Assembly: GCF_003334765.1 (NCBI RefSeq)
Contig: NZ_QOWT01000036.1
Direction: 5' to 3' (one strand)
Origin: Escherichia coli
Lineage (GTDB): Bacteria; Pseudomonadota; Gammaproteobacteria; Enterobacterales; Enterobacteriaceae
Length of the DNA stretch: 40,009 nucleotides
The first letter of the stretch is position 1, and every line of letters begins with the position of its first letter. The notes beneath the pieces were generated by a model. That model was not told the DNA's origin. It made no database searches and saw only the letters and a program-made list of their open reading frames with translations. A program made the position numbers and the translations under genes. This document shows positions 34,056 through 34,145 of this stretch, one piece after another.

Positions 34056-34145
34056 TCAGGAGTGGTTTTCGAGGTAAAGGACAGCCATGACGATAATCGC
34101 CGCCATAATCAGAAATCCTATCAGGATGTAAAATGCTTCTGCCAT
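34056..34145 (-). CDS. Candidate 29-aa single-pass membrane small protein (possibly the described small protein yldA)
   Basis: The internal Met of the 62-aa track ORF gives MAEAFYILIGFLIMAAIIVMAVLYLENHS: one hydrophobic helix with a charged tail. It has a weak ggga Shine-Dalgarno-like upstream sequence, and its stop abuts the ybdR stop with a 3-bp gap. Confidence 0.4.
   Translation of the reverse strand: MAEAFYILIGFLIMAAIIVMAVLYLENHS

Follow-up and report, generated by a model that had tools for sequence, protein, structure and literature searches.

The 29-codon gene yldA between ybdR and rnk in Escherichia coli: a conserved small protein, probably membrane-spanning and a likely remote relative of YoaI

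Does a 29-codon open reading frame wedged between ybdR and rnk in Escherichia coli encode a protein and, if so, what kind of protein would it be? The question was considered on a stretch of 40,009 nucleotides of E. coli DNA (assembly GCF_003334765.1, contig NZ_QOWT01000036.1), hereafter called the window. The frame occupies positions 34056-34145 on the minus strand, with its ATG at 34145-34143 and its TGA at 34058-34056, and its 29 sense codons translate to MAEAFYILIGFLIMAAIIVMAVLYLENHS followed by the stop, which confirms the small ORF that a first-pass annotation of the sequence had placed between ybdR and rnk. The convergent neighbour ybdR (Zn-dependent alcohol dehydrogenase, identified by ORF and annotation, 32814-34052, plus strand) ends with a TGA at 34050-34052, and the two stops are separated by exactly 3 nt (34053-34055); the coordinates thus agree with the same annotation in placing the small ORF on the strand opposite ybdR, with its stop 3 bp from the ybdR stop. 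Upstream, on the same strand, lies rnk (34283-34693, minus strand), identified by ORF and annotation and recovered as the constant predecessor of the small gene in the rnk loci described below; 137 nt separate its stop from the ATG. A reading of the sequence also places a weak Shine-Dalgarno-like GGGA, with a presumed function in initiation, 6 nt 5' of the ATG (34152-34155, minus strand). A 29-codon ORF is by itself within chance: the 3 kb around it are overlapped by 49 ORFs that reach 20 aa or more, and in a mechanical ORF list the frame extends to 62 aa from an upstream ATG at 34244. The reality of the gene rests on comparative and experimental evidence.

The locus is identical to that of E. 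coli K-12 MG1655 (NC_000913.3) over 401 of 401 nt, and there the same ORF is annotated as yldA (b4734, YP_009518757.1, 643330-643419); the RefSeq name across E. coli genomes is 'small membrane protein YldA'. The window protein scores 57.9 bits against the NCBIfam equivalog NF041476.1 (cutoff 45, E 7e-16, aligned over residues 1-29 of 29), and Pfam PF23689 'YldA-like' matches all 23 aligned YldA sequences, the window protein included. Exactly this 29-aa sequence, located between ybdR and rnk, is reported as detected by VanOrsdel et al. 2018 (PMC6001520, Table 1), who fused a C-terminal SPA tag on the chromosome and obtained a band on immunoblots of LB cultures for 36 of 80 candidate small ORFs; a tag at this end neither defines the yldA start codon nor proves membrane insertion. 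The unverified belief of the first-pass annotation that the ORF is the described small protein yldA is therefore borne out by the complete K-12 identity, by b4734 and by the listing of VanOrsdel et al., and the epitope-tagged product that it had proposed as a check already exists (PMC6001520). The gene is known: it was annotated and its product detected before this work. The discovery value is accordingly small, as yldA is already in RefSeq, EcoCyc-style annotation, UniProt (YLDA_ECOLI), NCBIfam and Pfam. What is new is the evidence for purifying selection, the map of its distribution, the link to YoaI, the independence from ybdR and the existence of two diverged alleles in E. coli. In the literature that could be searched, nothing was found on the function, localisation or interactions of YldA.

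The frame was followed by a genome scan anchored on Rnk with one genome per species, which yielded 80 enterobacterial loci, and every stop-to-stop segment in the six frames of these 80 rnk loci was searched with an HMM. An intact YldA homologue was present in 34 of them, always on the rnk strand, with an ATG start and with exactly 29 codons; none of the unrelated segments in this search scored above 6.9 bits. The start normally lies about 130-145 nt past the rnk stop, with spacer insertions in two loci. A Citrobacter amalonaticus genome (L018, ~4445-4610) has a 163-bp insertion between rnk and yldA that brings in a second copy of the rnk hairpin, with GAGGATGCGCTCGCATCCTC at +34 and +197, and C. 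sedlakii (L023) carries a different insertion of ~90 bp just upstream of yldA.

Among 36 distinct yldA DNA sequences the entropy at codon positions 1, 2 and 3 is 0.66, 0.48 and 1.18, respectively, and the median pairwise dN/dS is 0.25. All 36 are 29 codons long, and the alternative frames contain stops in most of them. Constraint is tighter in codons 15-29 (pN/pS 0.28) than in codons 2-14 (0.47), and the most conserved part of the protein is the C-terminal half of its hydrophobic helix, positions 16-25. Met1, Glu3, Ala21, Val22, Leu25 and Glu26 are invariant, the last in 34 of 34 distinct orthologues (codon 26, GAA, at 34068-34070 on the minus strand), and Ile7, Ala16, Val19, Leu23 and Tyr24 are nearly so. 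The intergenic flanks are largely unalignable between genera, except for the rnk hairpin and for the purine-rich Shine-Dalgarno-like motif, which occurs as GGGGA, GGAA or GGGA at the same distance from the ATG in the orthologues. The substitution pattern, together with a frame conserved amid unalignable flanks, excludes a non-coding explanation and indicates that the yldA frame is under purifying selection. Conservation of the reading frame in related genomes and analysis of synonymous sites, both suggested as checks at first pass, thus came out positive, with intact frames in 34 of 80 species loci, a dN/dS of 0.25 and the greatest variation at third positions. Taking together the translation, the K-12 identity, the NCBIfam and Pfam matches, the SPA-tagged product and the orthologues, we regard the yldA CDS as almost certainly a genuine, translated protein-coding gene.

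The gene is present in Escherichia, some Citrobacter, Enterobacter, Lelliottia, one Leclercia, Pseudenterobacter, some Kosakonia and Phytobacter, and absent at the rnk locus from Salmonella, the Citrobacter freundii complex, Kluyvera, Trabulsiella and others. It has been lost in many genera and is therefore dispensable; yldA is thus under purifying selection and yet repeatedly lost. In Enterobacter cloacae DSM 26481 only the 3' 39 nt of yldA are left (L033, 4473-4511, plus strand; nhmmer E 3.5e-4), a deletion remnant of a recent loss. Concerning the other neighbour, all four combinations of presence and absence of yldA and ybdR occur across genera, and no fewer than 21 species genomes, as well as 1817 E. 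coli genomes, have yldA without ybdR. The existence of the four combinations indicates that the close abutment with ybdR in K-12 is incidental, and that the constant neighbour of yldA is rnk.

Two forms of the locus were observed in E. coli itself, and one or the other yldA allele is found in 5418 of the 5423 matching complete genomes. The K-12 arrangement, ybdR with the K-12 yldA allele, is that of 3601 complete genomes. In 1817 others ybdR is missing and a second yldA allele, MSEALGITAFYIFIAAIIVAAVLYLEQRW, lies directly upstream of uspG; exact look-ups also retrieved this second allele from E. albertii and E. marmotae. The two encoded proteins share 52 % amino-acid identity. The haplotypes (region 34222-32590 in the window; L002, 3700-4010, for the other arrangement) split immediately past the rnk hairpin and rejoin near the start codon of uspG. 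The sequence directly 5' of uspG, presumably including its promoter, differs between the two haplotypes. The search of representative proteins described below also gave a protein of 67 aa (P0031) in which MSEALGITAFYIFIAAIIV, the first half of the protein encoded by the second E. coli allele, is followed by the in-frame sequence upstream of yldA in K-12 and by a complete K-12-type YldA. This chimera points to recombination between the two haplotypes in some genome, or else to an assembly artefact.

The upstream boundary of the yldA unit is marked by a hairpin located 3' of rnk (34228-34249, minus strand), which folds into a 9-bp stem AGAGGAUGC/GCAUCCUCU with a 4-nt loop, followed by UUUAC. Most of the 80 loci have it 3' of rnk, whether they carry yldA or not. 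Its loop varies, and wobble pairs and compensatory changes preserve its stem, e.g. GAGGATGT...ACATCCTC in four loci (L039, L051, L061, L075). The palindrome GAGGATGC-N4-GCATCCTC was considered as a yldA operator and rejected, as it follows rnk irrespective of yldA and shows compensatory stem changes; its presence regardless of yldA, its variable loop and its compensated stem identify it as the 3' hairpin of rnk. For the same reason, conservation of the hairpin provides no explanation for that of yldA. The structure is likely a weak terminator of rnk and, as only UUU follows it, a probably leaky one. The sequence of its stem, GAGGAUGC/GCAUCCUC (8-9 bp), is almost invariant in most of the loci L003-L082, where the neighbouring DNA is unalignable, with a compensatory GAGGAUGU/ACAUCCUC in a few lineages. 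Such invariance of the stem sequence is unusual for a plain terminator.

In the interval from the rnk hairpin to yldA a sigma-70 scan gave no consensus promoter, the sole nearby match on the minus strand being inside the CDS. The Pho box CTGTCATAWAWCTGTCAY, searched for because yoaI is PhoB-regulated, was not matched anywhere in the window, even when 3 mismatches were allowed. An Rfam scan of the locus gave no RNA family except the known rnk leader (rnk_leader, RF01771, 34739-34847, minus strand; 124.9 bits, E 1e-24), a cis-regulatory leader of rnk that is unrelated to yldA. Expression of yldA would probably rely on transcription that continues past the weak rnk terminator, or on a weak, non-consensus promoter within the following 90 nt. 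On the other side, as the stops are 3 nt apart and the gap contains no terminator, the ybdR transcript must continue antisense into yldA. In no fewer than half of the MG1655 RNA-seq samples to which ExcludonFinder was applied, ybdR-yldA is reported as a convergent excludon (PMC12288877), and in K-12-type genomes this convergent transcription would probably dampen yldA expression. Elsewhere, yldA is among the genes up-regulated by fluoride under anaerobic conditions, with the regulator not assigned there (PMC10100675).

Ten Enterobacter and Lelliottia loci contain, about 26 nt 5' of the yldA ATG, the perfect direct repeat CTTAAT-CCAGG-CTTAAT, of the form YTTAAK-N5-YTTAAK. It is located at 4508-4524 (plus strand) in L026, and at the same place in L030, L035, L041, L042, L044, L045, L050, L056 and L057. 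A perfect YTTAAK-N5-YTTAAK repeat has no other occurrence in the 86 loci examined (~690 kb, both strands) and is absent from the E. coli window. At this spacing from the ATG, no -10 element is obvious. The repeat fits the consensus of the PmrA/BasR box, and on this sequence pattern yldA of the Enterobacter clade may be under PmrA/BasR control.

Concerning the protein, residues 4-25 (34071-34136, minus strand) form an uncharged run of 22 residues without any strongly polar one, flanked by Glu3 and Glu26, and the best 19-residue Kyte-Doolittle mean is 2.97. A single transmembrane helix is predicted over codons 4-25 by hydropathy and by the calculation of uncharged runs, and YldA is very probably a single-pass membrane peptide. 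The first-pass annotation had described a single predicted helix with a charged C-terminal tail: the helix is predicted here as well, and the tail is no more than E-N-H-S. This is the tail of the window and K-12 allele, and most orthologues have E-R-H-W. Of 34 orthologues, 28 have a Lys or Arg among their last four residues and 0 have one among the first four, a distribution that supports an orientation with the N-terminus out and the C-terminus in, as in YoaI; as the K-12 allele has lost the Arg of the tail (ENHS vs ERHW), the argument is weaker for this allele. From the sequence and the positive-inside rule, Met-x-Glu3 would be periplasmic, residues 4-25 would span the membrane, and the tail Glu26-Arg/Asn-His-Trp/Ser would be cytoplasmic. 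A literature search returned no fractionation data for YldA.

To which protein, then, is YldA related? For all 11 YldA proteins tested, the second-best NCBIfam family is YoaI (NF041475.1), with 19-32 bits and E-values down to 9e-8. In 9 of the 11, residues 3-29 of YldA are aligned with residues 8-34 of YoaI, and in the other two the alignment starts at residue 6 on the same diagonal. E. coli YoaI reciprocally matches the NCBIfam YldA model. The window protein itself obtains 22.5 bits on NF041475.1, below the cutoff of 45, and is thus no member of the YoaI equivalog. On a custom YldA HMM, E. coli YoaI scores 18.9 bits, against a maximum of 12.6 in 5000 full shuffles and of 18.7 in 5000 shuffles of the transmembrane core with fixed ends; 10 other small membrane proteins reach at most 4.2 bits on this HMM. 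Comparison of the separate YldA and YoaI alignments with hhalign gave a probability of 97.6 % (E 3.9e-12, 28 columns). A profile search of 1.84 billion representatives with a YoaI-headed alignment returned 61 proteins, all YldA-like or YoaI-like. Among these are bridging proteins of 34 residues, which combine the N-terminus of YoaI with the C-terminus of YldA, e.g. MNDPAFFDTLCITAVFLVIASALVMSVLYLERRW. Two such proteins occupy the yoaI position, between a DUF441 gene (yeaL-like) and a tRNA_edit gene (yeaK-like), and end in SVLYLERRW or AVRYLERRW. These positional YoaI orthologues match PF23689 and score on both NCBIfam models, with 38.4 and 29.6 bits on that of YldA, below its cutoff of 45. E. 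coli YoaI has no Pfam match.

The alignment register places Ser26, Val27 and Glu31 of YoaI, all invariant, opposite Ala21, Val22 and Glu26 of YldA, all invariant as well. K-12 has a separate yoaI gene (1874078-1874182; L084, 6079-6183, minus strand), and yldA is located after rnk instead of between yeaK and yeaL. From these profile comparisons YldA is, in all likelihood, a remote homologue of YoaI, and the data support its description as a YoaI paralogue that is five residues shorter at its N-terminus, a homologue outside the YoaI equivalog. YoaI is a PhoB-regulated inner-membrane protein; it binds the sensor kinase EnvZ and is an activator of EnvZ-OmpR (Vellappan et al. 2025, PMC11429745). 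In the same work, Ser26, Val27 and Glu31 are invariant, and the substitutions E31A and E31Q abolish both the binding of YoaI to EnvZ and the activation of omrB. The cytoplasmic tail of YoaI consists of residues 31-34 (PMC11429745; review PMC12648545). YldA has thus kept the glutamate that is needed for YoaI activity.

By analogy with YoaI, YldA would most likely have no enzymatic activity of its own; its helix and the juxtamembrane Glu26 would pack against a larger inner-membrane protein and alter the activity of that protein. A YoaI-like membrane modulator is our best overall explanation of yldA, with a probability of roughly 0.6, and we consider it somewhat probable, from the same analogy, that YldA binds a larger membrane protein and modulates it. 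The YoaI-EnvZ pair makes a sensor kinase a plausible partner, and this part of the proposal is tentative. As the invariant Ser26 of YoaI is Ala in YldA, YldA could have another partner or a diverged function. We would be slower still to assert the more specific form, that this truncated YoaI paralogue binds a histidine kinase, EnvZ or another, via Glu26 and so constitutes a second small-protein input to two-component signalling. Should it hold, the loss in Salmonella and the two deeply diverged alleles of E. coli would mark a lineage-specific rewiring of this kinase input.

Three other explanations were weighed against the modulator. YldA could be an accessory subunit, structural or stabilising, in a transporter or in a respiratory or enzymatic membrane complex, instead of a modulator of signalling. 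Small subunits of this kind are KdpF for KdpABC, CydX for cytochrome bd and AcrZ for AcrB. They share with YldA the size class and the single-helix architecture, and conservation of the whole half of the helix in the cytoplasmic leaflet, and not of one face, is what tight packing in a complex would give. However, the genes of such subunits usually belong to the operon of the complex, whereas yldA is always found after rnk, whose soluble product is annotated as a nucleoside diphosphate kinase regulator, and is never beside a gene of a membrane complex. KdpF, CydX, AcrZ and MgtS obtain at most 4.2 bits on the YldA HMM, compared to the 18.9 bits of YoaI, and the sole characterised homologue, YoaI, acts on a sensor kinase. 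We therefore consider an accessory subunit unlikely.

A role as a membrane-damaging peptide similar to type I toxins, held down by the antisense 3' extension of ybdR, is far less probable. It would account for a short hydrophobic peptide whose gene is fully overlapped by a convergent transcript in the ybdR-yldA excludon. Tagged YldA nevertheless accumulates detectably in ordinary LB cultures, the gene, in contrast to typical type I loci, has a single copy, keeps its synteny and is vertically conserved, and no RNA family was matched at the yldA locus. Moreover, yldA is kept without ybdR in many genomes, so that ybdR is not an obligatory antitoxin; a type I system has a dedicated antisense RNA, and here the only antisense source, ybdR, is missing from many genomes that have yldA. 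Least probable of all, if by a narrow interval, is a translated peptide without function, with the conservation due to a role in cis (3' UTR of rnk, termination, 3' UTR of ybdR) or to noise. Many tagged small ORFs have no known function, and the repeated loss of yldA, with its remnant in one Enterobacter cloacae genome (L033), would be compatible with this idea. It is contradicted by the variation at third positions, by a dN/dS of about 0.25, by the fixed length of 29 codons, and by residues that remain invariant across genera whose intergenic flanks are unalignable. The preferred reading thus remains that of a YoaI-like modulator of a larger membrane protein.

How does YldA compare to known systems? 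With the described YldA family (b4734, NF041476.1, PF23689), the window gene has the same DNA, protein and position, and no difference was seen. With the type I toxins Ibs, Ldr, TisB, ShoB and DinQ it shares a short hydrophobic peptide and overlapping antisense transcription, and it differs from them in that YldA is detected in unstressed cells, yldA can be retained without its antisense partner ybdR, and the gene is syntenic and present as a single copy. Several small membrane proteins regulate larger ones: MgrB acts on PhoQ, MgtS on MgtA and PitA, PmrR on LpxT and AcrZ on AcrB. A part of this list is found in the review PMC12648545. YldA resembles them by its size class, its single helix, the lack of an enzymatic domain and a presumed helix-helix mode of binding, but no sequence relationship to them is detectable (at most 4.2 bits for those tested).

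The closest comparison is with YoaI itself (b1788, 34 aa). YldA differs from it by the lack of the five N-terminal, periplasmic residues N-D-Q-M-F, by the Ala in place of the invariant Ser26, by the aromatic Tyr24 in place of Leu, by an upstream region devoid of a Pho box and by its locus after rnk. Being placed in one superfamily with YoaI, the only member of known activity (EnvZ activation), provides a testable functional lead for the uncharacterised YldA. The likeness extends over the protein, since both are predicted or described as single-pass helices with 22 uncharged residues between two conserved Glu exactly 23 positions apart, and both share the C-terminal motif [S/A]-V-L-x-[L/I]-E-R, of which [A/S]-V-L-x-[L/I]-E corresponds to the conserved cytoplasmic-leaflet half of YldA. 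It extends to the genes as well: yoaI abuts the stop of yeaK (which ends at 1874077) as yldA abuts that of ybdR, and yeaK-yoaI is, like ybdR-yldA, a convergent excludon (PMC12288877).
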